Position numbers and translations under genes: made by a program
Shown here: positions 4,079 through 36,780 of the stretch, piece after piece
How positions within the stretch are numbered: position 1 is the first letter of the stretch
How the letters are laid out: each line of letters starts with the position of its first letter
The notes under the pieces: model-generated
Database searches by the model: none
The model's input: only the letters and a program-made list of their open reading frames with translations
Told to the model about the DNA's origin: nothing
Virus genome (UHGV): UHGV-0205693
Reading direction: 5' to 3' (one strand)
Length of the DNA stretch: 36,794 bases
From: a virus

Positions 4079-4307
4079 TAAAGATAGCTCCGAAGTCTGG
4101 TTCTTCCTCCCGCACCGTTTCTTCCTGCTGGTTGCGGTATTTAATCGGGTTCAGGAAATGGCCCCACGTCGTTTTAGGATGGCCGTCTGCCCTTTCCATG
4201 AAAAAGACTCCGGCCCGGCGTAGCGCTTCACACTGCCGCGATTTAAGCGGTGTCCCCGTCAGTTCGATCATTTCCTCTCTGGTGATGATGTCGTGATCGT
4301 GTCTCAT
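4062..4307 (-). CDS. xis: excisionase-like / small DNA-binding protein
   Basis: 81 aa, overlaps the int start by 17 nt, and is preceded by the recurrent GAGGAAAGACCATG start context. The position is typical for xis. The sequence call itself is weak. Confidence 0.45.
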   Translation of the reverse strand: MRHDHDIITREEMIELTGTPLKSRQCEALRRAGVFFMERADGHPKTTWGHFLNPIKYRNQQEETVREEEPDFGAIFNGRKA

Positions 4308-4463
4308 GGTCTTTCCTCAGCATGCCGGCTATCGCGTTGTCTGCCGTATCGCAAGCGCGTTGGATATCGGACTGGGTCAGAGTCCTCTTTCTAACGCTGG
4401 CTGATAGCCTGCCAATTTTGATATCGAAATCTGAAAGTAAAAGTGTGCCTGGTTGCCAACGTA

Positions 4464-4500
4464 GCATTGTGATCTCCGGTTCATAGGTAGATCACAATGC
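4464..4500. repeat. perfect 12-bp inverted repeat GCATTGTGATCT / AGATCACAATGC with a 13-bp spacer
   Basis: Seen directly. Intergenic, between the small ORF ending at 4517 and xis. Confidence 0.8.
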
Positions 4501-5270: not shown

Positions 5271-7411
5271 TGTGCTTTCTCCTCGGCTTTATTCAGTTCT
5301 TTAATGCGGCCATCCTTAATGGTGATGAGTCGGCGGAGTCTGCCAGACAGATAGCGTTCATGCTGCGTATCGCCGTTGGCCTGGGCGGCTTTAATGTGTA
5401 CATCGATCTCACGTGCAATAGGGGAAAACACGCCATTGATTTCGTTCACCGTCACTCCATGTGCCAGGGTATTAGCAACGCGGCTTAATTTGTCGTCAAA
5501 CTCCTGGCGAAGCCGTGCTGCATCTTCGGCTGATTCGCTGGCGTTCTTCAGGTCAAACTCGGCCTTATTCTTCTGGCGGTACTCCAGATTGTCGTAAAGC
5601 CCCATAAAGATATCGCCGCTGAATCCTAGGCCGGATAACGCCTTTTTAGTGGCATCGGTAAGGGATTTTTTAGCGGCTTCCCCATCGCAGATCGGGCCAT
5701 ATTTGCTGCCGTAAATGTAGGGTGTGCAGCCGTAGGCGTATTCTTCTCCGCGAACATCGTTTACCAGATACCAAAGGCGAATTTTCATTACGTGATGTTT
5801 TTCAGTGAGGAAACCGCCATTACCATCTGAGATCAGTTCCCATGTATTGTTACCGTCACTTCCTTTTACAGTCCGTGTAATTGGCGCTCCATCGTCAAAG
5901 CGTTCTTCCAGTATATCGACGCCCCAGCCGCTGCCTTTCAGGCCGAACTCACGGGTAGCCAGCATCGTAAGATACGTGCCGTTGATTGAGGTGCCGCCGC
6001 CGTTTTGCGTGAATGCTTTGGTAAAGCGCTCATCGGTTTTGAAGACACGTTTCCACAGCGCCAGGTTGTCTTGTTCGGTGCCAGGATTACCGACTGATCG
6101 CACGACTTCTTCAGCGCTAGGCATGGTTTCTTTCTGGCTTATGTGCTCTACCAACTGCTCCACATCATCAGCAATTCTTTGCGCTTTGACGCTCAGTTTT
6201 TCCTCTGGCTCGCTGGCGATGTAATTGTCTGACGCATAAACGCCATAGCCCATATCGTTGAGCGTCTCACGCGCCTGTTTGGCCTGGGTATCGGTTACCA
6301 CCGGCTGTAGTGCTTCCGCTTTTTCGACCACGTTTGAGGCGGTATTTTGCGTTGCCTCTGGTTGTTTAACGGATCCTGTCTCGGTTTCTTCAAAGCGGCC
6401 GTTTGCCTCCAGCCATGAATCAATGTGGCGGCGTAGGCTGTCAGGGAAATGGTAGGTATCTTTTGCCGGGACGTTCTGCACTACGCCAAAAATACTGTCT
6501 CGGTCATATTTGAGGATGTGCTCCGTGGTGCGAAGCGCCATTGACCAACGTTTAAAATCTTCGCGCTCGTCTGCAATGATTTTCTCAGCATCGCGAAGGT
6601 TGCCTGATAATACTGGCGCGTCGGGAGAAATAGGGAGTAGGGCGACAGCGATCTCCTGATCCAGTGTTGCATAGGTATGTTTATAACCACGTTTGGGCGC
6701 GATTTTAACGTTGAAATCAGTGCTGGCGGTGCCGAGTGAGGAATTTTGGCCTGGTACCATTTCTTCACGTTTACCGGGATTCTCAAGCCAGCGTTTTACA
6801 AATTGAGAAATAGCCGCTTTGCCCGGAGTCTGGTTTTCAAAATGGGAGAAGATGCCCTGGATCAGATTGTTCAGACCTTCCACGTGCATATGTTTAACTG
6901 GCTCGTTGTTGTGCAGGGCGCAAAGCACATTGAAATTAAAACGGTCATCCTCTTCCATGGTTTCGTCGTGGTTATCCAGATCATCAAGATAATCTACAAC
7001 CTGCGAATAGAGCTGGCCGTTCATCTCTAATTTGCTGAAGAGTAATACAGCTGCAAAACGCTCCCTAGGGGATACCGTCATCAGATCGATAACTTCATCG
7101 CCTGTCGGCAGCTCGGTGACGTCACCATTCCGGATGTTAGCCACCCATTTTTCACCGTCAAAGGTATTTTCTCGGGCGAACTGCTCATCGAACTGGCCAA
7201 CGGTCGGCAGCGGCTGGCCCTCTTCGTGTTCCCACAGCTTAGGTTTGAAATAGTTATCACCATTTGCCGGGTAAGATTCCCAGAGTTTGCCGGTGATAAT
7301 GCTTTCGGCGACTTTCTTGTTTGGTGCTTCGACGGCGATCGCCAGCTGCACGGCGCCGCAGTCTTTGATTGCCGATTTTTTTGGCTCGAATAAGCCGTTG
7401 TAGATGGTCAT
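5267..7411 (-). CDS. 714-aa protein with a C-terminal Erf/Rad52-like single-strand annealing domain fused to an N-terminal region of about 450 aa of unknown function
   Basis: C-terminal segment TDATKKALSGLGFSGDIFMG and upstream YAYGCTPYIYGSKYG resemble the Erf/Sak/Rad52 SSAP signature (DA..RAL..LGfG). Sits in the early-left operon next to Gp157. Confidence 0.45.
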   Translation of the reverse strand: MTIYNGLFEPKKSAIKDCGAVQLAIAVEAPNKKVAESIITGKLWESYPANGDNYFKPKLWEHEEGQPLPTVGQFDEQFARENTFDGEKWVANIRNGDVTELPTGDEVIDLMTVSPRERFAAVLLFSKLEMNGQLYSQVVDYLDDLDNHDETMEEDDRFNFNVLCALHNNEPVKHMHVEGLNNLIQGIFSHFENQTPGKAAISQFVKRWLENPGKREEMVPGQNSSLGTASTDFNVKIAPKRGYKHTYATLDQEIAVALLPISPDAPVLSGNLRDAEKIIADEREDFKRWSMALRTTEHILKYDRDSIFGVVQNVPAKDTYHFPDSLRRHIDSWLEANGRFEETETGSVKQPEATQNTASNVVEKAEALQPVVTDTQAKQARETLNDMGYGVYASDNYIASEPEEKLSVKAQRIADDVEQLVEHISQKETMPSAEEVVRSVGNPGTEQDNLALWKRVFKTDERFTKAFTQNGGGTSINGTYLTMLATREFGLKGSGWGVDILEERFDDGAPITRTVKGSDGNNTWELISDGNGGFLTEKHHVMKIRLWYLVNDVRGEEYAYGCTPYIYGSKYGPICDGEAAKKSLTDATKKALSGLGFSGDIFMGLYDNLEYRQKNKAEFDLKNASESAEDAARLRQEFDDKLSRVANTLAHGVTVNEINGVFSPIAREIDVHIKAAQANGDTQHERYLSGRLRRLITIKDGRIKELNKAEEKAQ

Positions 7412-7443
7412 TGGTCTTTCCTCGTTTGTAACTAATTCGCTGG

Positions 7444-7772: not shown

Positions 7773-8183
7773 TTAAAACGGTACGTCGCTTTCTTCAATC
7801 GGAGAGTGGTCGATGCACAGCAGCTGCTGGATCTGGTCTTCAATAACGCTTAACTGTTTGTTGGCATCAGCAGATATTTGCTCTTTCTTCGCGCGAAGGG
7901 CATTAACCTGCATCCCGATAATATCGATAGGCTCTAAAGCAGGAATGGCAACCTCTACCGTTTTAGTTGTAACGAGAACATACAGATCAGGGTACTGCTG
8001 TGACATGTCACAGGTGAATGAGTGATAAGACGTTGGTAGGTATGGATTGGTTGTTGCCATAACGTAGATAGTTACGGGGATGGTAAGCGCTTCCATAGCG
8101 ACTCCTTGGTGATGTATACTCAGAGCCGATCGGCGACTCTGTCGTTGGTCTTTCCTCGCTACAGGGTTGGTCCCCTGTAGCAT
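7773..8183 (-). CDS. first gene of the pL operon. Candidate N-like antiterminator if translated from 8183 (N-terminal arginine-rich segment PVARKDQRQSRRSAL). An alternative start at 8098 has a strong AAGGAG ribosome-binding site and gives 108 aa.
   Basis: The position immediately downstream of the pL leader, boxB-like hairpins and a tL1-like terminator fits an N-like role. The arginine-rich motif is present only in the long form. Confidence 0.35.
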   Translation of the reverse strand: MLQGTNPVARKDQRQSRRSALSIHHQGVAMEALTIPVTIYVMATTNPYLPTSYHSFTCDMSQQYPDLYVLVTTKTVEVAIPALEPIDIIGMQVNALRAKKEQISADANKQLSVIEDQIQQLLCIDHSPIEESDVPF

Positions 8184-8300
8184 TCCTGGCGGATTGGTCT
8201 CCGCTGGGGTAAATCAGCCCACTCCGGTGGGCTTTTTTACGCCTGAATGTTGCCGGTCTTTCCCGGCTGTCAGGGTGGTCAGTCCCGTTGGTCTTTCCTC
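8145..8300 (-). repeat. two copies of a start-codon-less CGAGGAAAGACCAA unit (decoy RBS) in the pL leader, identical to the functional RBS unit at 7414-7427
   Basis: TTGGTCTTTCCTCG occurs on the plus strand at 8145-8158 and 8287-8300 with no ATG following on the minus strand. Confidence 0.7.
8226..8249 (+). terminator. rho-independent terminator on the plus strand (AGCCCAC-tccg-GTGGGCT followed by T6) inside the minus-strand operon
   Basis: Perfect 7-bp stem and a T6 run, seen directly. Confidence 0.6.
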
Positions 8301-8431
8301 GTTACCGTGTGAAAAAAATGCCCGGGGCGCCCGGGCCAAGACTACACACAGCAATTCGTATTCGTTGCGGTCTTTCCCGCATGTCATCGTACTGTCGGCG
8401 ACCCGAAGAATTATTGCCCGTCTTTCCGGAC
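8252..8431 (-). ncRNA. pL leader region with three boxB-like hairpins: GCCGG-GAAAGA-CCGGC (8252-8267), GCGG-GAAAGA-CCGC (8367-8380), GUCCG-GAAAGA-CGGGC (8416-8431)
   Basis: 5-bp stems with identical purine-rich GAAAGA loops. The third pairs better as minus-strand RNA (a G-U wobble on that strand, a C-A mismatch on the other). They lie between pL and the first early gene, as nutL does. Confidence 0.45.
8311..8336 (-). terminator. tL1-like intrinsic terminator in the pL leader (GCCCGGG-cgc-CCCGGGC followed by U7 on the minus strand)
   Basis: Seen directly. Located upstream of the first early-left gene. Confidence 0.6.
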
Positions 8432-8620: not shown

Positions 8621-9076
8621 TTATTGCTTACGTGTTGCCAATAGCTCTCTAAATAAGCGGTCGAAACCTTCTACTTTCTCTTTTAAATCAGATAAATGGC
8701 GTTCTTTTTCGCTCTGCGGAAGCCTCTCATACAAATCTATAAGTTCTGCATGTTCTGGGTTAAGAAGTTTCCAGCCTGGTCCTGATCTATCTTCGAGATA
8801 CTCCCCTGATTTCCTAACGTAATTCATCATCTCGGCTAGGTCGGGTCTGATCTCTTCTGGTTTTACCCCAAGTAGAGAGGCGAATTTTAATGTGGCATCT
8901 GTGTTTAGCGGAGTTGTGCCATTTAAGTAATGGCTTACTGACGCCTGTGTGCTAAAGCCAAGCACCTCCGCTGCCTTCTCCTGAGTCAGACGTAAAGTTA
9001 CTTTTTTCTCGTTCCAGATATCACGAAGGCGTTTGGCAGCTTCGCGCTCTACGGCGTCAATGGTTTTCTTTCTCAT
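8621..9076 (-). CDS. cI: cI-like HTH (XRE-family) repressor, 151 aa, lacking a recognisable S24 autopeptidase domain
   Basis: N-terminal HTH (LTQEKAAEVLGFSTQASVSHYLNG). Divergent from cro across the operator region. The C-terminus is too short for S24 and has no Ser/Lys dyad context. Confidence 0.75.
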   Translation of the reverse strand: MRKKTIDAVEREAAKRLRDIWNEKKVTLRLTQEKAAEVLGFSTQASVSHYLNGTTPLNTDATLKFASLLGVKPEEIRPDLAEMMNYVRKSGEYLEDRSGPGWKLLNPEHAELIDLYERLPQSEKERHLSDLKEKVEGFDRLFRELLATRKQ

Positions 9077-9119
9077 GGAGGCATGTTATTCGCAAAATTA
9101 ATTAAACTCTAAGGTCATT

Positions 9120-9170
9120 GCTATTGACGAAAAATATTAACGTTATTAATATTAATTCTGTCCAATCACA
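9120..9170 (+). promoter_or_regulatory. OR/pR: TTGACG (9125-9130), 17 nt, TAATAT (9148-9153), overlapping the 12-bp palindrome ATTAATATTAAT (operator)
   Basis: Seen directly, 30 nt upstream of cro. Confidence 0.6.
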
Positions 9171-9182
9171 GAGGCCCTAACG

Positions 9183-9416
9183 ATGAAACTGAAAGACTAT
9201 TTAAAAACATCTGGTGTTCGGCAGCATGAATTCGCCGCACTGGTTGGGAAAACTCAAGGCTACGTAAGCCGAATTGCTGCGGGAGAATGTTTCCTGTCCG
9301 CCGCGACAGCGTTGGAATGGTCTGCTGCTACTAAGTATCAGGTTACGCCGCACGATCTTCTCCCAAATATTTATCGAAAACCAACTGACGGACTGCCGGA
9401 ACAGAATGCAGCTTAA
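9183..9416 (+). CDS. cro: Cro-like HTH regulator
   Basis: 77 aa with the HTH QHEFAALVGKTQGYVSRIAAG. First gene rightward of OR. Confidence 0.75.
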   Translation: MKLKDYLKTSGVRQHEFAALVGKTQGYVSRIAAGECFLSAATALEWSAATKYQVTPHDLLPNIYRKPTDGLPEQNAA

Positions 9417-9925: not shown

Positions 9926-9945
9926 CCTGTACCGAGGAAAGACCA

Positions 9946-10167
9946 ATGAGAACACAAGACCGCATCACCTGGCGGAATGGGTTTCGCCGGAACGGGGTAC
10001 AAGTCCCGATGGAAGATATCGAATCGATTTTCGAAGAGCGTCGCGCTACTGCGCTGACAATCTGGGAACGCTACGAACTGCGCAAGGCAGACCTGCAGGA
10101 AGCGGGACTCACCCAGAAAGAATACGAAATCGCCTGCCGTCAGCTGGCTGACTCGCTGGGGATCTGA
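9946..10167 (+). CDS. hypothetical protein (73 aa) preceded by the conserved boundary cassette
   Basis: ORF with the ACCGAGGAAAGACCAATGA start context. Confidence 0.5.
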   Translation: MRTQDRITWRNGFRRNGVQVPMEDIESIFEERRATALTIWERYELRKADLQEAGLTQKEYEIACRQLADSLGI

Positions 10168-12565: not shown

Positions 12566-12603
12566 CCGCGCCTGACCAGCGCGATTTAACCGAGGAAAGA
12601 CCA

Positions 12604-13272
12604 ATGACCACGAATTTAAATTACCCAAAACCAGTAAAACCGGACGATGGCTGCAACTGGCTACCCGTTATTCTCTGGCGCATGAACGCCGGCGCGCGCG
12701 CCCGTAGCCGTTCCGTGTTCGTTGCGGCGCCACGCCCGGAACCGGTACCCGGCATCACACCGCAAAAACCGATTAAGCGTGAAATTATCGCCCCTACGGT
12801 TTCCGGCCGCAGGCGCAAAACGCATATCGGCACTGTGATTTATTCCAAAGGAGAAAAGAGCGTACGTCTTAGTGAAGGCGTCACGGTCTGGTCTGCTGGC
12901 CCGAATGAGCATTTCGATAAAAAAACGGGCCGGCGCGTCGGCAGTATTGGCCGTCACCGTCTGGTGCTGGAGAGTATCCGCCCATTGCGGGCCAGCGACG
13001 AACAGCAGGACGCCGGGAGCATCACCGCGCAGCAGCTGGTATCGGTGATGAAAAGCAAAACGCTATCTTACCAGGGCATTCTGGCATTAATCCAGAAGCA
13101 CTATCCAGATTGTCAGGTGACGATTAAAGAACTTCACGATCGCGTGTTCGGCATGTTCATGTCGAATTACGTGGGTATCACCCGTCACGACGATATGCCG
13201 GTGGTTCACTTCACGCTTAACAGCGTCGATCCCCGTTATTACATCGAGTCAGCGAAGAACAAGAGGGCATAA
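12604..13272 (+). CDS. hypothetical nin-region protein (222 aa)
   Basis: ORF with the boundary cassette start context. Confidence 0.5.
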   Translation: MTTNLNYPKPVKPDDGCNWLPVILWRMNAGARARSRSVFVAAPRPEPVPGITPQKPIKREIIAPTVSGRRRKTHIGTVIYSKGEKSVRLSEGVTVWSAGPNEHFDKKTGRRVGSIGRHRLVLESIRPLRASDEQQDAGSITAQQLVSVMKSKTLSYQGILALIQKHYPDCQVTIKELHDRVFGMFMSNYVGITRHDDMPVVHFTLNSVDPRYYIESAKNKRA

Positions 13273-17138: not shown

Positions 17139-17435
17139 ATGCCGCTGGTCGCCACCTTCCGTACAGACTGGTTCAGAGTCATTACTGACCTGACACGAAA
17201 AAACCTCACCACTCAGCAAATCGCCGATGAACTTGGCGTTTCGAAATCTGCCGTTCTCGGTTGGAAATCCGGATCAGAACCTCGCCACGGTCACGGTGAG
17301 GCACTTATCGCTCTCTGGTGTCTGGCTACCAGCTCAGACCGTAAAAAACTCCCCACAGTGCTTTATCGGCAGTGGTGGACGTTCCGCCGCCCTGTTTTTG
17401 GTCGGGAAACTGACCAGAAGGGCAACACACAATGA
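17139..17435 (+). CDS. HTH protein (Nu1/AlpA-like helix-turn-helix), possible late-gene regulator
   Basis: TTQQIADELGVSKSAVLGWKSG resembles the Nu1/MerR-type HTH. Located immediately upstream of the structural operon. Confidence 0.35.
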   Translation: MPLVATFRTDWFRVITDLTRKNLTTQQIADELGVSKSAVLGWKSGSEPRHGHGEALIALWCLATSSDRKKLPTVLYRQWWTFRRPVFGRETDQKGNTQ

Positions 17436-21860: not shown

Positions 21861-21876
21861 GGTCGGGATTCCGACC
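21861..21876. repeat. GGTCGGGATTCCGACC hairpin-repeat copy 2 (26 nt after the membrane/coiled-coil moron)
   Basis: Stem GGTCGG/CCGACC with loop GATT. Twenty bp are identical to the copy at 34583-34604. Confidence 0.7.
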
Positions 21877-26471: not shown

Positions 26472-29186
26472 GTGAGAATACCAACTGGAAATTTCGGCAA
26501 TGTAACGCCGCAGGCGCAGCAAAACCGGGTGGCAGTCAGCAACGTTGGCGCCGTAGGCAATGCCATTTCAGGCGCAGGCGTGGCATTAGGCGAAGCTGCT
26601 GATCTGGAACAGCGCCGACAGGATAAAGCTGAGGTAGCGGCGACGCAGGCTATCCTGACCGATCTGGAAGCTAAATCTAATGACCGCTGGGAAAACCCGG
26701 AGACGGGCGCCACGGTCACGCGTCAGGGCTTTAAATCGTCCGGTGTGGTCACCGATATGGATAAGGCCGACGCTGGCGATTACGAGGAAGCGCGCAAGCG
26801 CGTCCCGCCCAGCCAGTTAAACTATTTTGATGCACAGTGGAAAGCGGGACAGGTACGTCGAACAAGCACCTATAGCGGTTTCGAACGTGCGCAGACTGAG
26901 GAAGCCCAGCGCCAGCAGCTTAACGCGACAGTGACCTCTTCAGTTGAACAAGAGGCCAGCGCCTACGATAACCCGATGCAGGCGGGGCTGATACGCAGCG
27001 CCCGTAAACACTCGATCGAGATGTATGGCCAGGCGCGCGGCTGGCCGCAGGAACGTATCGACGCGGCGGTATCGGAAGCGAACCAAAAAGCGCTGGAGCA
27101 GCGCGCGCAGAACTACGCGGTAACCAATCCCACCGGCTGGCTTAATGGTGATTTTACGCTGGTCAACAGCAGCACCGGCGAACTTGATATGCGCGCCGTT
27201 GGCCTGGTGGAATCCGGCGGCAAGCACCGCAATGCAGATGGTAGCCTTGTTACATCCCCCGCGGGCGCGCAGGGTGAATTTCAGTTGATGCCGGACACCG
27301 GGAAAGAACTGGCGTCTAAACGTGGCGTGGAGTACAACCCGGACGACCCTGTGCAGCATGCGCAGCTGGCGCGCGATTATGCCGGGCAGCTCAGTAAAAA
27401 ATATCAGTCTGAAACGTTGGCCGGCGCTGCATATAATTGGGGTATGGGTAACGTCGATAAGCTGATCGCTAAAGTTGGCGACCCGCGTAAAGGCGAAATC
27501 TCAATGGCGGATTTCGTTAAGCAGCTGCCAGCCGAAACGCGTGGTTGGCTGTCCCGCTACAACAAAAATAAAACTGGCCTCGACCCGGTAGCGGTAAACA
27601 AAATCGACAATATCGCCGAATCGCAGATCCGAGAACAGCGAGCGGCGCTGCGCCAGCAGATGGAGCCCATCGTTAATAATACATTTTCTCAGCTGTACAA
27701 TGGTGATGTTCCCGAAGCGATGCCTAATGCCGAAACCATCATGTTCATGTACGGCGAGAAAGGGCAGCAGGTAGTAAAGCAGCTGGATATCGCGATCGAT
27801 ACCGCCAGAACCTTCCAGGCTATCCAGTACGTCACCCCGGCAGAGCAGCAGGCCGAACTGGCGAAAGTGAAGCCGCAGGCAAACGACCCGGATTACGCAC
27901 TGAAACTCGATGCGTACGGCAAACTTAATGCGCTGGTGCAGAAGAGCAACGCCAATATTCAGGCGCAGCGTGATTCCGCCCGCTTTAACGACGCGCTGAT
28001 CTCCGGCGAGAAACTCGACCCGAGCAACAAATCCATGCAGAAGGCGGCGGACAATACGCCATCGGCGCTTAACTTCCGCATTAACGACGCCACCACTCAC
28101 GACGCTATCGTGCAGCAGGTTAACCAGACGGGCATTATCCCATCGCAAGTTACATCCCAACTGAATGCGATCGCCCGCTCCAGTAGCCCCGACGTGGTTA
28201 AGCAGGGATCGACCTTATTTAACGCGCTATACGAAACTGATCCTGCCTCTGTGGGCGATATGCCAAAGGATATGCAAAGCTTTTACCTGACCGTTAAACA
28301 GCTTACCGATTCCGGTATGGCTTCAGACGAAGCGGTGAAGCAGGCACAGAACGTGACCTATAACCAGACTGACGCCCTGAAATCGCAATTGTCTTCTACG
28401 CAGAGCACGAAGGAATACAAAAAAGAGCGTGCCAGCGCGATGGATTCCGCAGTCAGTAGCATGAAACCGTGGTACAGCTTTGGTGGCCCCGCTGCAGATG
28501 ACCAGAATCCTAATTCAGTAAAATTCCGTAATGACTACCAGTCACTTTATGACATCAATTATCGCAATTCGGGTGGTAATGCTGATATCGCCAAAAAGAT
28601 GACTAATGCCCAGATCACCCGTACCTGGAGCCTTAGCGATGTAAATGGCAGCACTCAGCTTATGAAATATGCGCCTGAAGCGCTCTATAACTACGGGCCA
28701 TCTGGTTGGCAGGCTGCGCAGTGGAAAGAAGAAAAAGAGCGCCTGACCTATGGCGAACGTGGAGAAAAAATTGAAACCAGTCCGACCCAACTGGGGATTA
28801 CATCAGGTTCAGCGCCCGTTATTACATCAAATACCCCAGAATCGAGGATTGGTGGAGAGCTGGAAATAACCCCGGATATTTTTACTCCGCATGATCGTGA
28901 TTACGCGATTATGGTTCGCATAAAAGACAAAGATGGTATCCCCAGAGCACAGCCTTATTACGATAAATTTGGTCGTCCCATGCGCTGGAAACCTGACATT
29001 GAAAAATGGGGACCATATCAAAAAATGCAGCAGGAGAGGGAGCAACAAGGTGAAGAGGAAATATCACGCGGGAAAGATATTCGAGGCTTTAAGGAAAAAC
29101 ACCGCGCGCTCGATGAGCAATATCAGCGTTTGCATGATGACCGTATGAACCGGTTTAAAAAATACTTTTCATGGAGCAATGAATAA
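26472..29186 (+). CDS. internal virion (ejection) protein with a lytic transglycosylase (SLT) domain, gp15/gp16-like
   Basis: VESGGKHRNADGSLVTSPAGAQGEFQLMPDTGKEL is the SLT motif (ES..., GA.G.MQLMP.T). 904 aa. GTG start. Confidence 0.7.
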   Translation: MRIPTGNFGNVTPQAQQNRVAVSNVGAVGNAISGAGVALGEAADLEQRRQDKAEVAATQAILTDLEAKSNDRWENPETGATVTRQGFKSSGVVTDMDKADAGDYEEARKRVPPSQLNYFDAQWKAGQVRRTSTYSGFERAQTEEAQRQQLNATVTSSVEQEASAYDNPMQAGLIRSARKHSIEMYGQARGWPQERIDAAVSEANQKALEQRAQNYAVTNPTGWLNGDFTLVNSSTGELDMRAVGLVESGGKHRNADGSLVTSPAGAQGEFQLMPDTGKELASKRGVEYNPDDPVQHAQLARDYAGQLSKKYQSETLAGAAYNWGMGNVDKLIAKVGDPRKGEISMADFVKQLPAETRGWLSRYNKNKTGLDPVAVNKIDNIAESQIREQRAALRQQMEPIVNNTFSQLYNGDVPEAMPNAETIMFMYGEKGQQVVKQLDIAIDTARTFQAIQYVTPAEQQAELAKVKPQANDPDYALKLDAYGKLNALVQKSNANIQAQRDSARFNDALISGEKLDPSNKSMQKAADNTPSALNFRINDATTHDAIVQQVNQTGIIPSQVTSQLNAIARSSSPDVVKQGSTLFNALYETDPASVGDMPKDMQSFYLTVKQLTDSGMASDEAVKQAQNVTYNQTDALKSQLSSTQSTKEYKKERASAMDSAVSSMKPWYSFGGPAADDQNPNSVKFRNDYQSLYDINYRNSGGNADIAKKMTNAQITRTWSLSDVNGSTQLMKYAPEALYNYGPSGWQAAQWKEEKERLTYGERGEKIETSPTQLGITSGSAPVITSNTPESRIGGELEITPDIFTPHDRDYAIMVRIKDKDGIPRAQPYYDKFGRPMRWKPDIEKWGPYQKMQQEREQQGEEEISRGKDIRGFKEKHRALDEQYQRLHDDRMNRFKKYFSWSNE

Positions 29187-32080
29187 TGCCTATCTACCCG
29201 CAATCCGATGTTCCGCCGAGTGTAATGGACAATGCTCTTCAGGCGCCAACTGGTTTTGATGTATCTCTGCCTGAAGGAACTAACCCGGAGCCACAGCAGC
29301 AACAACCGTCTGTATGGGATGCCGCTTTTCGTCAGAATAACCTGCTCGCCGGGATGTTCCGCCCGGCTAAACAATTTGAGCCGGCGGAGGGGTATAACCC
29401 TTATTCTGATAAAAACGAACTAAAGGGGTACGAACAATGGGGATCCGCCTTTGCGGATTCACAATCCCCAGAGGAAACAGCCTGGATTAAAAACCGGATA
29501 GACGATGAAAACGAAGACCGCCGGGTGCTGTCTGAAGCAGGTGCCGAAGGAACTTTAGCCAGTATAGCCGCCGGGGTTATCGACCCCGTCACAGTCGCAT
29601 CGATGTTTATCCCCGGTGCGCAGGGAAGCCTGGCTGCTCGTATTGGTTCTCAGGTTGCTATTGGCGCCGCCGGTACCGCGCTTAGCGAGGTTGCGCTCAA
29701 TAACGAGCAGTATACCAGAACAGCAAGGGAGAGCGCCGCACACATCACAGCCGGCGCACTTCTCAGCGGTGTATTTGCTACCGCTGGCGCGATGATCACC
29801 CCGTCGGTAAGAAACGCGGCCACCCGTGAAGTGGCGGAGGCGCTCGATAATATGAACGCCTCGCCAACGATTAACAACGCAGCCGATGCCCTGGAGGATA
29901 CTTTACCGAACGGTGGCAGCGTCGGTGCTATGCGTATTCGCGAAGCTACACTGGAAGATCTTACGCCAGTGTCTGGCGGCCCGCTCGGAAAGCTGGCTAA
30001 AAAAGCCGGTAGCTATCTGACGCCGATCACCCGCCTGATGGAATCCCCATCAAAAGAAGCGCGCCGGACAGCGCTGGAGCTGGCAGAGAATAACTTCACG
30101 CTGGAAGGCAACCTGCGCGGTATTGAAACGCCGGTTGCAGCTGAGACGCGCGTACGTGGCTGGCGCCGCGAAGAGGCGGCCGTCGTTACTGCGAATAAGC
30201 AGGCATACACCCAGTACAAAGCCGAAGGCGGTGATCTGGGTTATACGGCCTTCCGTGAACAGGTTGGCGAGGCGCTGCGCAACGGCGACGTGCACGTCAA
30301 TGCGAAAGTGCAGGAAGCGGCGCAGGCAATGCGTACAGTCATTAACCGCGTGAAGACAGCACAGCAGGAACTGGGCTTACTTCCGCCGGATGCCGAACTG
30401 AAAGCGATGGGACAGACCAGCTATTTCCCACGCGTGTACAAGGTAGGGAAAATCGTTAGCGAGCGCGATAAATTCCGCAACATGCTGGTTGACTGGTGGT
30501 CACGCGGTGAGAAAACCATGTCCCGCGAAGATGCCGAAATCGCCGCCGATACCACTATCAACCGTATCGTTGGGGCCAAAATTCCGCAGGAGTTTGCCAA
30601 CGTCTTTATGGTGAAAGCGCCGGGCAGCACTAAATCGCGTACGTTGAGCGTTCCCGATCGCCTGATGAAAGATTATCTGGAGAGCGACGCTAACTACGTC
30701 CTGCAGCGTCATATCCGCGAAGCCTCGGCAGAAATCGAATTAACCCGCACCTTTGGCAACAAGTCGCTGGATTCGCAGCTCGCCGCCATCCAGGACGAGT
30801 ACGACGCGCTAATGCGTTTACGCCCGGCGGAACAGGAAAAGCTGGCGAAAGCACGTGAAGCCGACCTGCGCGATATTCTGGCGCTTCGCGATCGCCTCGT
30901 CGGTACCTACGGTATGCCGGATGACCCATCATCATTTTTCGTCCGCGCCGGTGCTTTCCTGCGTAGCGCCAACTTTGTAACGAAACTCGGCGGCATGACG
31001 GTATCCGCTATCCCGGATCTGGCGCGCGGCATGATGGTTAACGGCTTCAGCAACACCATGCGTGGATATGGCGCACTGATCACCCGCTCGCCGGCTTACC
31101 TCGCCAACCGGGCGGAGCAGAAGAAAATGGCCGTGGGGCTTGAAACCATACTGCATACCCGCGCGCGTACGATGGGGGATCTGGTCGATAGCTCTTCACG
31201 TACGACAGCTGCAGAAGCTGGCATGGAGCGTATTACCGATGTGTTCGGAAAGCTGACCATGATGGGCCACTTTGACGATATGAACAAATCGGTGAATGGC
31301 ATGATCACGTCCGACGGTATTCTGTCCGGCGCGTTCCCTGCGAAGCGCCTGGCAAAACTCGGCATCAATGAGAAGATGGCCGAACGCATCCAGCGAGAAT
31401 TTCAGAAGCACGGCGAAGTTATTCAGGGCTGGCATATCGGCAATTTCGAAAAATGGGATGACCAGTACGCCGCTGGCCTGCTGCAATCTGCTGTGCTGAA
31501 GGATGTAAACAATACCGTTATCACGCCGGGGATTGGTGATACGCCGCTATGGGCCAGTACCCCGTTGGGGAAAACCGTATTCCAGTTTAAGTCTTTTGCC
31601 ACGGCGTCATATAACCGCGCGACGCTCGGCGGCCTGCAGGAAGGTACCGCGCAGTTCTATTACGGTACCGCCTTCCAGATTGGTCTGGGCTCTTTGACCT
31701 ATGCGCTTAAGCAGGCGGCTAACGGTCGGGAAGTTGATTTGACGCCGCAGAAGATGGTTCTCGAGGGCATAGACCGTTCTGGTATCCTCGGCCCGCTGAT
31801 GGAATATAACAACATGGCGGAAAAGGCATCCGGAGGGATGATAGGGTTAGGGCCATTACTCGGCACCGGTACGCAGTCCCGGTACGCCAGCCGCGGCTTT
31901 ATCGGTTCGGCACTGGGGCCAACCTTCGGCCTACTGGATACGGTTACCGATGTGACCGCCGGCGTGCTGAATGGTGACGCTGGCGACCGTGTGCTGCATA
32001 GCGTGCGTACGTTGTTACCAGGTAATAATCTGTTCTGGATCGCACCACTAATTAACCAGGTAGACCCAGGGATGCGTTAA
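29186..32080 (+). CDS. large internal virion / ejection protein (gp16-like), 964 aa
   Basis: Size and position after the SLT-containing protein. ATGA-type coupling. Confidence 0.55.
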   Translation: MPIYPQSDVPPSVMDNALQAPTGFDVSLPEGTNPEPQQQQPSVWDAAFRQNNLLAGMFRPAKQFEPAEGYNPYSDKNELKGYEQWGSAFADSQSPEETAWIKNRIDDENEDRRVLSEAGAEGTLASIAAGVIDPVTVASMFIPGAQGSLAARIGSQVAIGAAGTALSEVALNNEQYTRTARESAAHITAGALLSGVFATAGAMITPSVRNAATREVAEALDNMNASPTINNAADALEDTLPNGGSVGAMRIREATLEDLTPVSGGPLGKLAKKAGSYLTPITRLMESPSKEARRTALELAENNFTLEGNLRGIETPVAAETRVRGWRREEAAVVTANKQAYTQYKAEGGDLGYTAFREQVGEALRNGDVHVNAKVQEAAQAMRTVINRVKTAQQELGLLPPDAELKAMGQTSYFPRVYKVGKIVSERDKFRNMLVDWWSRGEKTMSREDAEIAADTTINRIVGAKIPQEFANVFMVKAPGSTKSRTLSVPDRLMKDYLESDANYVLQRHIREASAEIELTRTFGNKSLDSQLAAIQDEYDALMRLRPAEQEKLAKAREADLRDILALRDRLVGTYGMPDDPSSFFVRAGAFLRSANFVTKLGGMTVSAIPDLARGMMVNGFSNTMRGYGALITRSPAYLANRAEQKKMAVGLETILHTRARTMGDLVDSSSRTTAAEAGMERITDVFGKLTMMGHFDDMNKSVNGMITSDGILSGAFPAKRLAKLGINEKMAERIQREFQKHGEVIQGWHIGNFEKWDDQYAAGLLQSAVLKDVNNTVITPGIGDTPLWASTPLGKTVFQFKSFATASYNRATLGGLQEGTAQFYYGTAFQIGLGSLTYALKQAANGREVDLTPQKMVLEGIDRSGILGPLMEYNNMAEKASGGMIGLGPLLGTGTQSRYASRGFIGSALGPTFGLLDTVTDVTAGVLNGDAGDRVLHSVRTLLPGNNLFWIAPLINQVDPGMR

Positions 32081-32120
32081 CGGTTAGGATATGGAGGATA
32101 AACAATAAGATGGGGATGGA

Positions 32121-32615
32121 TTGATGAGGAATATCACTAAATTTATAGGTGCATGTCTATGTGCCTTATATCTTTCTGGTTGCGCGTCTACAAAATCGGT
32201 TGATGTGGTTTCAACAGAAAAAATAGATGCACCAAAAGTAATTGCGATCTCTGGTAGCAAAGGTTTGTGGGTTAAAGAAATTCAAAAACGATTGCGTAAT
32301 AAAGGATTTACAATTAAACGCTCTGTTAGCCAACAGACCATTATAGAAAAGGAGTCGGTTGATAGGACGGCTGTCTATAGGGATGCTTCAGCGAGATATG
32401 TTTTAGTTCTTGATGGCTATGCCCCTAGCGATTCTTTTCAGCGTTGCGTAGGCGGTGGTGGTTATAAATTCGATTATATAAATGCTGAGTTAGTTGATTT
32501 GGCAAAAAATGAGACAATTTTCTCTTATTCAAACTCCGGTTATTCAGAGGGCTGTCCGTTAGGTGGGACAATATTTACAGATATTGAAAACCTAATGGTT
32601 AACTCTTGGCGATAA
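32121..32615 (+). CDS. AT-rich moron lipoprotein (164 aa, LSGC lipobox)
   Basis: Signal peptide MMRNITKFIGACLCALYLSGCAS with a canonical lipobox. GC content far below the neighbours. Confidence 0.65.
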   Translation: MMRNITKFIGACLCALYLSGCASTKSVDVVSTEKIDAPKVIAISGSKGLWVKEIQKRLRNKGFTIKRSVSQQTIIEKESVDRTAVYRDASARYVLVLDGYAPSDSFQRCVGGGGYKFDYINAELVDLAKNETIFSYSNSGYSEGCPLGGTIFTDIENLMVNSWR

Positions 32616-32647
32616 TTAATAGTTAAGGCGGATGTAGCTCAACAATA

Positions 32648-32662
32648 GTCAGGATTCCGACC
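32648..32662. repeat. GTCAGGATTCCGACC hairpin-repeat copy 3 (33 nt after the lipoprotein moron)
   Basis: Sixteen bp identical to copy 1. Confidence 0.7.
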
Positions 32663-32680
32663 TCAAGCCCGGCACATCAT

Positions 32681-32710
32681 AGCCCTATGGATAACCACGG
32701 GGCTTTTTTA
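32681..32710 (+). terminator. rho-independent terminator (AGCCC...GGGCT followed by TTTTTT) after the lipoprotein moron
   Basis: Stem with an internal TGG/CCA helix and a T6 run. Confidence 0.45.
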
Positions 32711-33057
32711 TGCATTCAGATTACAAAACTCGCCTTACTGCTCTTAGCGATAAGCTCACCGATGTAGTTCTGGAAGAAGCCGATCCGGACAACTGGCCGG
32801 GGGCAGGAAAGGAAATCACAAAGCACACCAAACAGGAACGCGGCGATCGGTACTGGCATAAGAAGAATGCGGCCGCCTCGCTAACCCTGCTGGTAAAAGT
32901 CCATTCACTTATTGGTATGCACACTCGCGGCGGTACGCCAAAAACCGGCGGAGAAGATCCGGACGATGAAGCGTTCCTGTTAGGTCAGCAGGTAGCAGCT
33001 GCTGAGCGTAAAGCGCTGGAAGTCATCGAGAGGCTGCAACACAAAGGCAAAAAATGA
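32710..33057 (+). CDS. terminase small subunit (T7 gp18-like)
   Basis: 115 aa directly upstream of, and overlapping, the large terminase. Weak resemblance to gp18. Confidence 0.45.
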   Translation: MHSDYKTRLTALSDKLTDVVLEEADPDNWPGAGKEITKHTKQERGDRYWHKKNAAASLTLLVKVHSLIGMHTRGGTPKTGGEDPDDEAFLLGQQVAAAERKALEVIERLQHKGKK

Positions 33058-34664
33058 TTTCGTTCCTGGCCTTCTTTTTGATGTGGGCGGAACGGATGAA
33101 TTGGGATGTGCCGGACTGCCACTATAAAGCCTGCCACTGGCTGGAGCATCGCGGAAACCTCGCGGTACTTCGCTGTTTTCGTGGCTTTGGTAAATCAACT
33201 ATCCTGGGCGTTTATAACGCCTGGCGGTATTACTGCGATCGCCAGTACCGTATTCTGCATCAGTCGGAATCCGATACAACCGCCAGAAAGACCAGCCGCG
33301 ATACGCAAAACGTTCTGCGTAATCACCCACTGACGAAAGGTATGTTGCCGGACGGCATCGGTACCATCGAGCAATGGTGGGTAAACGGCGCGCTGGATAT
33401 GCGTAACGCCAGCATGTTCGCAAAAGGCATTCTGTCGAACGTTACCGGCGCCCGTGCCAACGAGTGCCAGAATGATGACGTGGAGGTGCCCGGCAATATC
33501 CAGACTCCGGAGGCTCGCGAAAAACTGCGCTATCGCCTAAGCGAGCAGACGCATATTTTGATACCCGGAGGCCGAAAATTGTTTATCGGTACGCCGCATA
33601 CCCACGATAGCCTTTACGACGAGAAAGAAGCAGAGGGCGCCGATTGCCTAACGATAAAGCTATTCGATAAAGAGCACCGCGTCGAAGCGAAGAAGGCAAC
33701 CAAAAAACGATACCGGATACCGTTCCGCCCGGAATATGTTTTCGTGGGGATCCACAAGGCCGCCAGGCTACTGATCGAGGGTACTGATTACCGATTGACG
33801 GAAGACGGCGTAGAGTTCGCGGCGCCGCCCGAAACGGTCGTGGATTTTTACGCCGGCTGCGCGTGGCCGGGCCGTTTCGATCATGATGAATTACTGCTGC
33901 GTCGTAAAGAATGCCGCACAGTCAACGAATGGGATAGCCAGTACCAGCTGCACAGTAAACCGGTTGGAGAAGTTCGCCTCGACCCTGACCGCATCCGCGA
34001 ATACAAGGTACAGCCTGAAATCCGCTACGCGAACCGCTCTTGTTCGATGTGGCTGGGCCAGACGCAAATCGTCGGTGCTGTCGCCTGGTGGGATGTAGCC
34101 ACCGGCAAAGTTAAGGCCGACGCCTCGGCATTCTCCCTGATTTTCACCGACGCGCGCGGGCATCTGTACTGGCATGTTTGCCAGGGATTAACTGGCGAGC
34201 TGGCAGAGTTTGACGACAACGACAAAATCACCGGCGGCCAGGTGATGCAGATTAAAGAACTGGTGTTGAAGTACCAGATCCCGCTGGTATGCGTTGAGGT
34301 CAACGGCCCCGGCAGCTTTGCCGGGAAGTTGCTGATTCAGGCGCTGAAGGGGACCGGCTGCGGCGTACGAGAAGAGTTCAGCGTCACCAACAAACAAAAG
34401 CGCATCCTCGATGCATTCGAAGCGCCGCTGTCGTCGCGGTTCCTGTGGGCACATACCGACGTGCTCGATGGCCCGATGTACGACCAGATGCGAGACTTTA
34501 ACCCGGCGCTGACTAATCAGCCCGATGACTTTATTGATTCCGGTTCCGGCGCTATCAGCTCAACACCAGTGCGCATTGGTAAATTGGTCGGGATTCCGAC
34601 CGCACAGGCGCGGGAACATTGGCAACCAAACGATGGCGATCACATGGTCGCCGTAGATTACTAG
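33054..34664 (+). CDS. terminase large subunit (T7 gp19-like)
   Basis: LRCFRGFGKSTILGVYNAWRY...ILHQSESDTTARKTS parallels T7 gp19 [21 protein letters not shown]...ILIVSASKERADANS (Walker A). Confidence 0.75.
   Translation: MISFLAFFLMWAERMNWDVPDCHYKACHWLEHRGNLAVLRCFRGFGKSTILGVYNAWRYYCDRQYRILHQSESDTTARKTSRDTQNVLRNHPLTKGMLPDGIGTIEQWWVNGALDMRNASMFAKGILSNVTGARANECQNDDVEVPGNIQTPEAREKLRYRLSEQTHILIPGGRKLFIGTPHTHDSLYDEKEAEGADCLTIKLFDKEHRVEAKKATKKRYRIPFRPEYVFVGIHKAARLLIEGTDYRLTEDGVEFAAPPETVVDFYAGCAWPGRFDHDELLLRRKECRTVNEWDSQYQLHSKPVGEVRLDPDRIREYKVQPEIRYANRSCSMWLGQTQIVGAVAWWDVATGKVKADASAFSLIFTDARGHLYWHVCQGLTGELAEFDDNDKITGGQVMQIKELVLKYQIPLVCVEVNGPGSFAGKLLIQALKGTGCGVREEFSVTNKQKRILDAFEAPLSSRFLWAHTDVLDGPMYDQMRDFNPALTNQPDDFIDSGSGAISSTPVRIGKLVGIPTAQAREHWQPNDGDHMVAVDY
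34587..34602. repeat. GGTCGGGATTCCGACC hairpin-repeat copy 4 (inside the 3' end of the large terminase gene, encoding KLVGIPTA)
   Basis: TTGGTCGGGATTCCGACCGC is identical to copy 2 over 20 bp. Confidence 0.7.
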
Positions 34665-34680: not shown

Positions 34681-36780
34681 ATGTCGGTACCGAACCAGAC
34701 ACCCTATAACATCTATACGGCTAACGGCCTGACAACCGTTTTTACGTACCAGTTCTATATCATTAGTGCCAGCGATCTGCAGGTAAGCATAAACGGAAAT
34801 ATTGTTACCAGTGGGTATTCCGTCGCGGGGGTTGGAAATAAAGATGGTGGTGATATCTCCTTTCTGACGCCGCCGGCGAATGGCGCTGTCGTTATGTTAC
34901 AGCGTGTTGTTCCGACGTTCCGGTTAACGGATTATCAGGATAATGGGGACTTACTGGCGGATACCATTAATAAGGACTTTGACCGTATTTGGATGGCTAT
35001 CCAACGAGCATTCCTCGAACTCGGACTGGCAATAACTCGCCCACTGTACGGTGGCCCATATAATGCGCAGGGATACCGAATAGCTAATCTTGCTGATCCG
35101 GTGGACAATCAAGACGCTGCAACGAAAAAGTTTGTAGTCCAAACTGAACAAGTTAATTTCTCACGTACGCTACGTGTTCCCGAAAGCGAGGTTGCAATGC
35201 TCTATCCGGTAACTCCGCGTTCTAATATGCTTCTGGGATTTAATGACCAGGGAAACCCGGTACCGATCGCCGGACAGACTCAAACTGCAGATCTGGCTAT
35301 TAAGCTGGCTTCGAAGGACGGCGCTGGCTTAGTAGCTACTGAAACAGGAAGAACGGTAGAGGCTTCTATTCGTGCGGCGTCTGGCTCATCACAGGCTCTG
35401 TTTCCAAAGTTTATTAATAAATTAACAGCTTATCGGCATGGCATTACCGGCTATCAGGATTTGTTCAGAGCTTACGGTTTCGGTAGTTCAGTGCAAGTGG
35501 GTGCAACACTTCCAGATCCTGCAACGCAAGCCCCTATCGCTAAGTTTTTCGAATACTTAAATAAAACGGTAAACCGTGGGGGGATTTATCCTCTTTCTTT
35601 CGAAAACAGGGGGGTTAATGGTTCGTCGATAAATAACTTCATTGTAAATCAGTGGCCTGGCGTCGTCGCAGAAGGCGTATACCCAGATATCGCGCTCTTT
35701 GTATATGGTATGAATGATTTCCCAACGGCAAACTATAATGCCGGGCAAACGTTCAATGAAAATGGATTTAAGCAGCGTCTTAGAACCGCGATTAATTTAG
35801 TCAGGGAGGCTGGCGGTGATGTTGTTTTGACAACCACACCGCATCCAAATATAGGTGAGTACAGCTGGAGCATGCCGCCATCTGTTAATCAGGTGTGGCC
35901 ATCATTTTCTCCACTTCCTGTTTCCGATGAGGACATTATCCCTTCAGCGGCAGAGTCAAACGTCACGTTTGAATGGAATGGTGTAAACATACAGGCAGGT
36001 GTTCGCTTCCTGCGTGGAAACGATGCCATCAGGCAAATCGCGGTAGAGATGGGATGTGTGCTGATTGATGTCGAAAAATACTGGTTTGATGCTGTAGCTA
36101 AATATGGCGAAACGGCATTATTCAATCGGACGCCTGAAATACAGACTGTTCACCCCAATTTGCTTGGGCATCAGCAATCGTACTGGCTTGCCTTTGAAGA
36201 ATTTTTTGCGAACATGGATAAGAACGGCTGGATACCGCCCGTAGCGAACAGTTATGACGTTTTCAGTGTCGGCGGGACAGCATTAAATCCAAACCCAAAA
36301 ACTGCTGACATTGACCTCCAATCTAATGGCATTCGGGCATGGGCTTATGGGTTGCGCGATAAATATGCGAGACTAATTTACGCGTCTGACCTGCTCGGAA
36401 AAATATCAAAATGGTCTTACACCTCACAATCCCCAACCTCTTCCGCTCCGGGTTATAGCCTGGAATGGACAGAATACCATTCCAGAACAGGTGGGCTTTA
36501 TACAACGGGTGACATCATTCCAGTTGCTATCCCCAACAGAACGTCGATGAAGGTTTTTATTGATGTGTGGACTTCTGCGCAAACCGGGTGGGCGCAGACA
36601 ATAGAGGTTATTGCTGTAAACCGTGAAGGGGTGGTGTCGTATACCATCGTTGGCGTTCATGATAACACGCCGAATGGTAACAGATTATTTACGGTAACAG
36701 TCGGTTCAGGCGTATTGAATATCAATGTGCTACAGGTTAACTCATCTGTTAAATACCACATCAGCGGTTTTAATTCGTAA
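34681..36780 (+). CDS. tail fiber/tailspike: T7 gp17-like N-terminal adaptor domain plus a C-terminal SGNH/GDSL-esterase-like domain
   Basis: N-terminus (…GYRIANLADPVDNQDAATKKFV) parallels T7 gp17 (…GRRIVNLANAVDDRDAVPFGQL). C-terminal blocks YGFGSS, NGSSINN, FVYGMNDF (GxND) and HPNLLGH resemble SGNH hydrolase blocks I, II, III and V. Confidence 0.6.
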   Translation: MSVPNQTPYNIYTANGLTTVFTYQFYIISASDLQVSINGNIVTSGYSVAGVGNKDGGDISFLTPPANGAVVMLQRVVPTFRLTDYQDNGDLLADTINKDFDRIWMAIQRAFLELGLAITRPLYGGPYNAQGYRIANLADPVDNQDAATKKFVVQTEQVNFSRTLRVPESEVAMLYPVTPRSNMLLGFNDQGNPVPIAGQTQTADLAIKLASKDGAGLVATETGRTVEASIRAASGSSQALFPKFINKLTAYRHGITGYQDLFRAYGFGSSVQVGATLPDPATQAPIAKFFEYLNKTVNRGGIYPLSFENRGVNGSSINNFIVNQWPGVVAEGVYPDIALFVYGMNDFPTANYNAGQTFNENGFKQRLRTAINLVREAGGDVVLTTTPHPNIGEYSWSMPPSVNQVWPSFSPLPVSDEDIIPSAAESNVTFEWNGVNIQAGVRFLRGNDAIRQIAVEMGCVLIDVEKYWFDAVAKYGETALFNRTPEIQTVHPNLLGHQQSYWLAFEEFFANMDKNGWIPPVANSYDVFSVGGTALNPNPKTADIDLQSNGIRAWAYGLRDKYARLIYASDLLGKISKWSYTSQSPTSSAPGYSLEWTEYHSRTGGLYTTGDIIPVAIPNRTSMKVFIDVWTSAQTGWAQTIEVIAVNREGVVSYTIVGVHDNTPNGNRLFTVTVGSGVLNINVLQVNSSVKYHISGFNS

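Follow-up and report, generated by a model that had tools for sequence, protein, structure and literature searches.

An AT-rich lipoprotein gene between the ejection and terminase genes

In the viral genome UHGV-0205693 (36,794 nt; this whole stretch is referred to as the window), an AT-rich cargo cassette carrying a lipoprotein gene lies on the plus strand at 32081..32646. Its left neighbor is the gene for the second internal virion (ejection) protein (IVP; 29186..32080, plus strand, 964 aa; phrog_342, E 7e-194), and its right neighbor is the gene in the terS position (32710..33057, plus strand, 115 aa; phrog_9277), which is followed by the gene for a T7-type large terminase, TerL (33054-34664, plus strand). 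The cassette comprises a 43-nt leader (32081..32123, plus strand), the lipoprotein coding sequence and a 31-nt tail. Comparison to an empty site (prophage L016) and to the related loci L012, L013 and L015, which carry other inserts, places the cassette between the IVP stop codon on its left and a short palindrome, hairpin A, on its right. The lipoprotein open reading frame (ORF) runs on the plus strand from a TTG at 32121 or an ATG at 32124 to 32615, which gives 164 or 163 aa, respectively. Since the N-termini of the homologues read MR... in the family alignment, the ATG at 32124 is the likely start, and we take the prolipoprotein coding sequence to be 32124..32615 (plus strand, 163 aa), with a computed mature protein of 144 aa, ~15.9 kDa and a pI of 8.4.

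The GC content is 0.365-0.415 across 32100-32700, compared to 0.55-0.60 upstream and 0.52-0.55 downstream, and the lipoprotein gene itself has a GC content of 0.382 between 3-kb flanks of 0.559 and 0.525. The same deviation was found in eight homologous enterobacterial loci (0.38-0.44 vs 0.47-0.56 in their surroundings). A preliminary description of this locus, made from the sequence alone, had reported an AT-rich island encoding a 164-aa lipoprotein with an LSGC lipobox; the GC profile confirmed the island where it had been placed, and the ORF with this lipobox was also confirmed, with the length of 164 aa applying to the TTG start. Between the window and a Klebsiella homologue, ~85 % of the synonymous sites differ and are thus saturated, while dN is only 0.125; judged by this substitution pattern, the ORF is a real coding sequence under purifying selection.

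The contents of the interval between the IVP and terS genes were surveyed in 70 TerL-related loci from reference genomes, in which the IVP end and the terS start were mapped and the intervals were read. The empty site, L016, is a prophage of Enterobacter sichuanensis with 68 bp from the IVP stop to the terS ATG; this interval reads TAA-tc-GGTCGGGATTCCGACC-tctggactgttc-catcatAGCCCtgtattcactacGGGGCTTTTTT-ATG and has both hairpin A and a second hairpin, hairpin B, inside it. The claim that the lipoprotein gene had been inserted between otherwise adjacent genes is therefore borne out. In two Raoultella loci (L012 and L013), the IVP is 96 % identical to that of the window, and terS and TerL are 98 % identical; despite these 96-98 % identical flanks, the lipoprotein homologue is missing from both, and the slot holds a 572-bp AT-rich insert that encodes an unrelated 145-aa signal-peptide protein on the minus strand. 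The view of the gene as cargo also held, given the near-identical L012 without the gene and with an unrelated gene in the same slot.

Other loci have yet other contents in this slot: a 106-aa secreted protein in L015, a 208-aa multi-pass membrane protein in L017 (slot GC 0.29), two small membrane proteins together with a 267-aa protein without assigned function in L021, and a 142-aa secreted protein with other small genes in L022. In a Pantoea prophage (L025), the slot carries a Hok/Gef toxin gene (4293-4499; PF01848, E 4.8e-14; phrog_251, MokW-like), and in the temperate Yersinia phage YeP4 it carries two unrelated minus-strand genes, one for another lipoprotein (LFSGC lipobox, phrog_3716) and one for a membrane/zinc-ribbon protein. 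Homologues of the window's lipoprotein occupy the same slot in Klebsiella (L002-L005), Pectobacterium (L011, L020) and Yersinia aldovae (L087) prophages. In relatives from Pseudomonas and Burkholderiales (L027-L047, L068, L076, L079 and L080), the IVP gene extends up to the terS start or into it (…WWEPG…APNLGA…tgatATG), and these loci have neither an intergenic hairpin A or B nor a cargo slot. Among the loci surveyed, the combination of hairpin punctuation and slot is specific to the Enterobacterales branch. From these comparisons, the lipoprotein gene is very probably accessory, moron-like cargo in a variable slot that is prone to recombination. The locus provides a base-resolved cargo slot in temperate T7-like phages, with an empty site, at least nine fillings and fixed boundaries, which is useful in annotating the accessory genes of prophages and, in engineering, as a safe site for insertion.

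Hairpins A and B in front of terS

Hairpin A is a 16-nt palindrome of repeat family D2, and the copy that follows the cassette (32647..32662, plus strand; AGTCAGGATTCCGACC) is degraded; the hairpin-repeat copy previously noted downstream of the gene is thus present, although in degraded form. Perfect copies (GGTCGGGATTCCGACC) are found at 21861-21876 and 34586-34601, and near-perfect or variant copies at 1445-1460 and 17400-17415. The perfect copies fold with about -11 kcal/mol (z -3.3), compared to -2.1 kcal/mol (z -0.1) for the copy at 32647. Five late modules each have a copy of the palindrome 38-80 nt upstream: these are the first late ORF, terS and the genes for the capsid, the tail fibre and the holin. 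The copy ahead of the tail fibre falls within the TerL coding sequence, where it encodes LVGIPT. In YeP4 and the Pectobacterium-type phages, hairpin A reads GGTCGGGAAACCGA[AC]C with a GNRA-like loop. YeP4 retains four of the positions, shorter related loci retain the two or three that fall within them, and L017 has a compensatory A:T change. Hairpin A was absent from the prophage types of L006, L010 and L084. By its distribution, hairpin A looks like late-operon punctuation or a homology anchor, and it could serve as the operator of a late activator or as an RNA element of the nut/boxB or processing-site kind. An integron-like or attC-like role was rejected because of the three copies that are not associated with cargo, one of them inside the TerL coding sequence.

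Hairpin B (32681..32709, plus strand) consists of AGCCCUAUGGAUAACCACGGGGCU followed by UUUUUU and abuts the terS ATG. It folds with -12.8 kcal/mol (z -3.4), and nine of its pairs are kept across 11 distinct sequences, four of them with compensatory changes. A consensus terminator scanner missed hairpin B because its stem is interrupted, and made a spurious call at 32147-32166, inside the region that encodes the signal peptide. The order hairpin A, spacer (12-15 nt), hairpin B and ATG precedes terS in all Enterobacterales relatives, YeP4 included, regardless of the cargo, and hairpin B is present in both the empty site L016 and YeP4. Since both hairpins are found in the empty site and next to other cargos, they predate the insert, and we consider it highly likely from these alignments that both the repeat and the terminator-like hairpin belong to the phage backbone. 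The preliminary description had given the lipoprotein gene an intrinsic terminator of its own; a hairpin with a T-run does follow the gene, but its private ownership by the gene is contradicted by the empty site and by the other cargos. A terminator that follows an AT-rich gene is therefore not necessarily that gene's own, which corrects a common shortcut in annotation. In hairpin B, the 3′ arm (GGGG) is placed 8-11 nt ahead of the terS start codon and is the sole Shine-Dalgarno-like sequence for terS, and hairpin B may thus combine attenuation of transcription with gating of terS translation.

Expression signals of the lipoprotein gene

The leader contains a probable Shine-Dalgarno sequence for the lipoprotein gene, GGGGA at 32112-32116, and a mini-ORF of four codons at 32110-32124 (plus strand; ATGGGGATGGATTGA, ATG GGG ATG GAT TGA), the stop codon of which overlaps the lipoprotein ATG. 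From this arrangement, translational coupling or a leader peptide is possible. A GGAGG at 32093-32097 precedes the mini-ORF.

A consensus sigma-70 scan of the plus strand from 31000 to 34000 found no promoter at 9/12. The best match in a relaxed scan, TTAACG-18-AACAAT at -47 to -17, reaches 8/12, a score that ~20 % of random 160-nt segments of this phage also reach. The lipoprotein gene is always co-oriented with the late genes, and the gap between the upstream virion gene and the lipoprotein gene, 43 nt in the window, is 4 nt in L006, 7 nt in L087 and 10-11 nt in L010 and L084. Taken together, the lack of a detectable promoter, the shared orientation and the tight abutment in relatives suggest that the lipoprotein gene is likely co-transcribed with the late operon. 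Autonomous expression in the lysogen is unsupported, although it may occur, for example from a non-consensus promoter. The earlier suggestion that the gene is expressed in lysogens had been drawn from its private signals, and it falls with them, since no promoter rises above the background, the terminator belongs to the backbone and the gaps in relatives are 4-11 nt.

These signals also bear on whether the insert is a classical self-contained moron, in which a gene with its own promoter and its own terminator is expressed autonomously in the lysogen. An AT-rich insert between genes that are adjacent elsewhere and a strong downstream hairpin with a U-run have the appearance of such a unit, and a weak TTAACG-17/18-A(A/C)AAAT match across the left junction is conserved in position between the window and the Klebsiella homologue. 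This promoter match is at the background level, however, and it is shared by loci that are homologous to each other and hence not independent; in addition, several homologues abut the upstream gene, and the terminator and hairpin also occur in the empty site and with other cargos. We consider a self-contained moron very unlikely.

The product is a predicted outer-membrane lipoprotein of a small family

The signal peptide and lipobox are encoded at 32124..32183 on the plus strand (MRNITKFIGACLCALYLSG|C, with the Cys20 codon at 32181-32183). We required [LVI][ASTVI][GAS]C after a basic n-region and a hydrophobic h-region; here, a basic n-region (R2, K6) and a hydrophobic h-region precede L-S-G-C at residues 17-20 (nt 32172-32183). 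Cys20 is invariant across 26 aligned homologues, and the Pfam model LPAM_1 was matched by four members in a per-member scan of the family. By these lipobox criteria, the product is a bacterial lipoprotein. Under the Lol +2 rule of Enterobacterales, lipoproteins without Asp at position +2 are sorted to the outer membrane. The +2 residue is Ala in the window protein and is A, V or L, and never D, in the 26 homologues, and because of this residue the product is most probably a lipoprotein of the outer membrane.

Among 1.84 billion proteins, the family has 197 representatives at 50 % identity (E <= 1e-3), nearly all of ~160 aa; 45 clusters at 90 % identity come from Salmonella salamae, Klebsiella, Yersinia, Pectobacterium, Serratia, Rubrivivax and Salinisphaera. 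In the alignment of 26 members, the invariant positions include the lipobox Cys, W49, R107-C108, G112-G113 and E142-x-C144-P145, and the family also has a Trp near the C-terminus. The C108/C144 pair suggests a putative periplasmic disulfide. Two distant members of ~320 aa, P0141 and P0191, have the lipoprotein domain fused to C-terminal Sel1/TPR repeats, which hints at a role in periplasmic protein-protein interactions; in a scan of the distant and long family members, C-terminal Sel1 repeats in these two were the only additional domains found.

The lipoprotein had no significant match in Pfam, where a sub-threshold hit to DUF7646 (E 0.013) was discounted, and the per-member Pfam scan gave no consistent family. 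In NCBIfam, the 'Sbal_3080 family lipoprotein' scored 22.9 bits against a cut-off of 80 in a match that includes the signal peptide, and it was also discounted. A profile of the 26 members had no match among all PDB chain sequences even at E <= 10. In 50,697 phage records, tblastn with the lipoprotein found nothing at E <= 1 and megablast with the region found nothing; the gene was not found in 5,426 complete E. coli genomes by distant blastn, the protein was not found among PLSDB plasmids by tblastn, and the family is absent from INPHARED. Among the contexts examined, the family is small, uncurated and found solely in mobile elements.

An AlphaFold2 model built with the family alignment had a predicted local distance difference test score (pLDDT) of 79.8 and a predicted template-modeling score (pTM) of 0.69. 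When this model was compared to the PDB with Foldseek, the top 19 matches were all PelC chains (E 8e-6 to 1.4e-4, probability 1.00, template-modeling (TM) score 0.39-0.56), followed by LptE (5IXM_B, E 1.5e-3) and the TolB N-domain (E 2.8e-3); Llp of phage T5 was absent from the top 50 matches. The best match among viral structures is annotated 'LPS-assembly protein' (E 1e-6). The model thus predicts an alpha/beta fold of the PelC/LptE class of outer-membrane lipoproteins.

The sorting signal and the model also speak to whether the product is a lysis protein (an o-spanin or a unimolecular spanin) or part of the virion with a structural or ejection function. The gene does lie beside the ejection-protein genes, and a weak PHROG match to 'Rz-like spanin' (phrog_456, E 0.0038) was obtained; this match is limited to residues 4-38, however, which correspond to the signal peptide, and the phage has its own Rz and Rz1. 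In the model, the protein has a folded 144-aa domain and no C-terminal transmembrane segment. The o-spanin (Rz1) class, with its short, proline-rich outer-membrane lipoproteins encoded within or beside the i-spanin gene, was rejected for this folded protein, the gene of which is ~7 kb away from the lysis cassette when the map is taken as circular. Absence of the gene from near-identical phages argues against a virion component and upholds the earlier view that the product is not one; to our knowledge, Lol-sorted lipoproteins are not packaged into virions. We regard either role as extremely improbable.

Genomic contexts of the homologues

All homologue contexts examined are prophages or small integrative elements, and no pel genes were found in the ~15 contexts examined. 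In Enterobacterales, the gene lies directly 3′ of the last large ejection-protein gene, and this position recurs in three or four architectures, namely the window type, Serratia L006, Klebsiella L010/L084 and the BPP-1-like hybrid L009. In L006, L010 and L084, the upstream protein has no detectable similarity to the IVP of the window, and the position is nevertheless kept. The lipoprotein P0005 is found in identical form with different tail fibres (L002 vs L004), and the fibres of lipoprotein-positive phages share the N-terminal adaptor alone; for these reasons, the lipoprotein is, by these comparisons, not matched to the polysaccharide receptor of the tailspike. The distant members in L007, L008, L082/L083 and L085 lie at the edges of prophages or elements, beside integrase, pRha or resolvase genes. 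One of them, P0016 (60 % identical; L082 1728-8977, and L083), is encoded by the penultimate gene of a ~7-kb integrase-bearing element beside the host gene ispG. Besides the integrase, this element encodes a 627-aa protein and has several small ORFs, and its lipoprotein gene overlaps a downstream 163-aa ORF; with the cargo at the distal edge, its layout is satellite-like.

The constant place behind the ejection-protein genes would also suit a helper of the lytic cycle that is made from the late operon only and that conditions the outer membrane for lysis or release, or that protects the progeny by neutralizing receptors or ejection triggers on debris, and that would play no part in the lysogen. 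Such a helper would fit the late-gene orientation, the lack of an own promoter and the 4-11 nt gap to the upstream virion gene in L006, L010, L084 and L087. Against this, the gene is dispensable and is missing in L012, L013 and L016, a full holin-lysozyme (endolysin)-Rz/Rz1 cassette is already present at 1515-2736, and the distant homologues lie at element edges beside integrases, away from late genes. We therefore consider a lytic helper unlikely.

Proposed function

Lipoprotein genes inside the structural clusters of temperate coliphages (mEpimmI) mediate receptor-specific exclusion, as tested experimentally (PMC11893012). PelC, LptE, CsgG and PqiC are outer-membrane lipoproteins with a common alpha/beta core and act at the periplasmic face of outer-membrane channels as rings or plugs (PMC13631591, PMC12141448); PelC forms a dodecameric ring with a conserved Trp-149 and an Asp-119 loop (PMC12141448). 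Our preferred reading is that the window gene is an exchangeable outer-membrane lipoprotein cargo gene that acts in superinfection exclusion. The reading as a whole, including the inferred function, is in our judgment about as apt to be wrong as right, and the exclusion function, taken by analogy, is a tentative proposal that falls somewhat short of probable.

In this proposal, a ~16-kDa alpha/beta domain of the PelC/LptE/PqiC/TolB-N class, probably with a Cys108-Cys144 disulfide, would be held at the outer membrane facing the periplasm. Its gene would probably be transcribed with the late operon, with weak or read-through expression in the prophage state, and the transcripts would then reach the backbone hairpin B before terS. 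The analogy is to T5 Llp and the mEp Lpp lipoproteins, which are encoded in structural clusters and target receptors of the outer membrane, and to the channel-capping members of the fold class. By this analogy, the lipoprotein would most likely bind, from the periplasm, either a protein of the outer membrane or the ejection apparatus of an incoming phage, and this binding would stop the entry of superinfecting phages, or wasteful ejection by progeny into infected cells or debris. A more specific version, which is decidedly unlikely, would have the protein mimic the PelC/LptE class and dock, alone or as a ring, under an outer-membrane channel such as a host porin, LptD, a polysaccharide exporter or an incoming gp14-type pore. 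It is equally doubtful that such docking would block T7-like genome ejection after adsorption and so represent a new exclusion class with the ejectosome, and not the receptor, as its target; this would explain why the gene rides behind non-homologous ejection genes independent of the tail-fibre type.

Several results weigh against exclusion as the function. No promoter above the background precedes the lipoprotein gene in the sigma-70 consensus scans, which weakens a prophage-expressed role. PADLOC gave no match for the lipoprotein, and it has no similarity to Llp, Cor, Bor or TraT in the Pfam and PHROG searches, in which only the signal peptide was matched; nor is its fold related to that of Llp or Cor. 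The fold match is moderate (TM 0.4-0.56 at 15-18 % identity), and the model has low confidence at residues 70-90. The distant members from Rubrivivax, Salinisphaera, L082 and L085 lie away from ejection genes, and the linkage to ejection proteins may be a mere shared insertion hotspot.

The fold also raises the question of whether the lipoprotein is a lysogenic-conversion factor that, like lambda Bor or plasmid TraT, changes the envelope to the advantage of the host, by serum or stress resistance, by export of exopolysaccharide or lipopolysaccharide (LPS), or by adhesion. An outer-membrane lipoprotein cargo gene in a prophage would suit this role, the fold class otherwise serves the machines for LPS, Pel, curli and lipid export (PMC13631591), and O-antigen acyltransferases in a second slot of L084 and L087 are examples of surface-modifying genes in these phages. 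Conversion would call for expression in the prophage state, however, and no promoter for it was detected; the protein has no sequence relation to Bor, Iss or TraT, and the family is rare and on mobile elements, being absent from the 5,426 complete E. coli genomes, PLSDB and INPHARED. These results make a conversion factor improbable.

If the exclusion function is true, a structurally distinct, PelC/LptE-like type would join the short list of exclusion lipoproteins, and this would bear on host-range prediction and on the failure of phage therapy in lysogens of Klebsiella, Raoultella, Serratia, Pectobacterium and Yersinia.

Other features of the phage genome

The window looks like a complete, circularly permuted genome of a temperate phage, that joins a T7-like module for virion and terminase to lambdoid-style CI/Cro control and an integrase. 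An internal virion protein with an SLT domain (26472-29186) precedes the IVP, and the tail fibre (34681-36780) has a T7-type N-terminal adaptor and an SGNH esterase domain. In the lysis cassette, Rz is encoded at 2244-2621 and Rz1, with an LCSC lipobox, at 2497-2736; the cassette adjoins the integrase gene (3062-4078, minus strand), as in the circular YeP4. A CI-like repressor and a Cro-like gene are found at 8621-9416. The window also encodes DnaB, two DNA methyltransferase-like genes and a portal gene, and no phage RNA polymerase was found among its genes. Among deposited phages, the temperate YeP4, YeP5 and YeP6 of Yersinia are closest (TerL 76 % identity), and the closest genome match is a prophage of Raoultella lignicola (TerL 98 % identity). 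A link to the APSE toxin-cassette phages, raised by a paper that cites YeP4, was rejected, since the similarity lies in the early/replication module and not in the slot.

A second cargo slot lies between the tail-fibre gene and the holin gene at 280-1444, directly left of a hairpin A copy. In the window, it holds a minus-strand gene (417-1322) for a 301-aa DUF2971 protein (PF11185, E 1.9e-11; phrog_1762; GC ~0.34). The second slot is only 88 bp long in L002, and in L084 and L087 this region carries an Acyl_transf_3 acyltransferase of the O-antigen type.

The motif CGAGGAAAGACCAATGA recurs at 7405-7427, 8142-8165 and 8283-8305 in minus sense and at 9926-9949 and 12588-12610 in plus sense; its copies were grouped as repeat families D1, I3, I4 and I10. 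It includes the Shine-Dalgarno sequence and start codon of several early genes on both strands, for example at 7411 (minus), 9946 (plus) and 12604 (plus), and from this placement it may serve translation initiation as a conserved cassette or be bound by a regulator.

Comparison with known systems

PelC (PDB 5T10, 5T11, 5T0Z and 9H80) is the best structural match of the window protein and is likewise an outer-membrane lipoprotein of similar size (~150-170 aa). The two differ in that the identity is 15-18 % and no PelC match was obtained among PDB sequences, in Pfam or in NCBIfam, and the window gene lies in a prophage cargo slot among virion and terminase genes, with no pel operon or PelB neighbor. 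Membership in the PelC family proper thus fails on both sequence and genomic context, and the fold alone is shared. The alpha/beta core is also shared with LptE, PqiC, the periplasmic domain of CsgG and the TolB N-domain, with matches weaker than that to PelC; unlike LptE, PqiC and CsgG, the window protein has no partner gene (lptD, pqiAB or csgEF) nearby and no sequence-level relation to them.

Like T5 Llp, phi80/N15 Cor and mEpimmI Lpp021/Lpp010, the window gene is a small accessory gene for a predicted outer-membrane lipoprotein with a lipobox, in or beside a structural cluster, that is dispensable and variable among close relatives (PMC11893012; 10.64898/2026.03.26.714494). Unlike Llp, Cor and the Lpp proteins, the product is much larger, with a 144-aa mature alpha/beta domain of the predicted PelC/LptE type, and unlike the genes of Llp and Cor, the window gene has terS and TerL between itself and the fibre gene and does not match the fibre type. 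In contrast to the morons of lambda type (bor, lom; Hendrix/Juhala definition), the window gene has no demonstrable promoter of its own and is followed by a terminator of the backbone; it shares with them a compositionally deviant envelope-protein gene between otherwise adjacent genes. The locus adds to a known class, the accessory envelope lipoproteins of phages.

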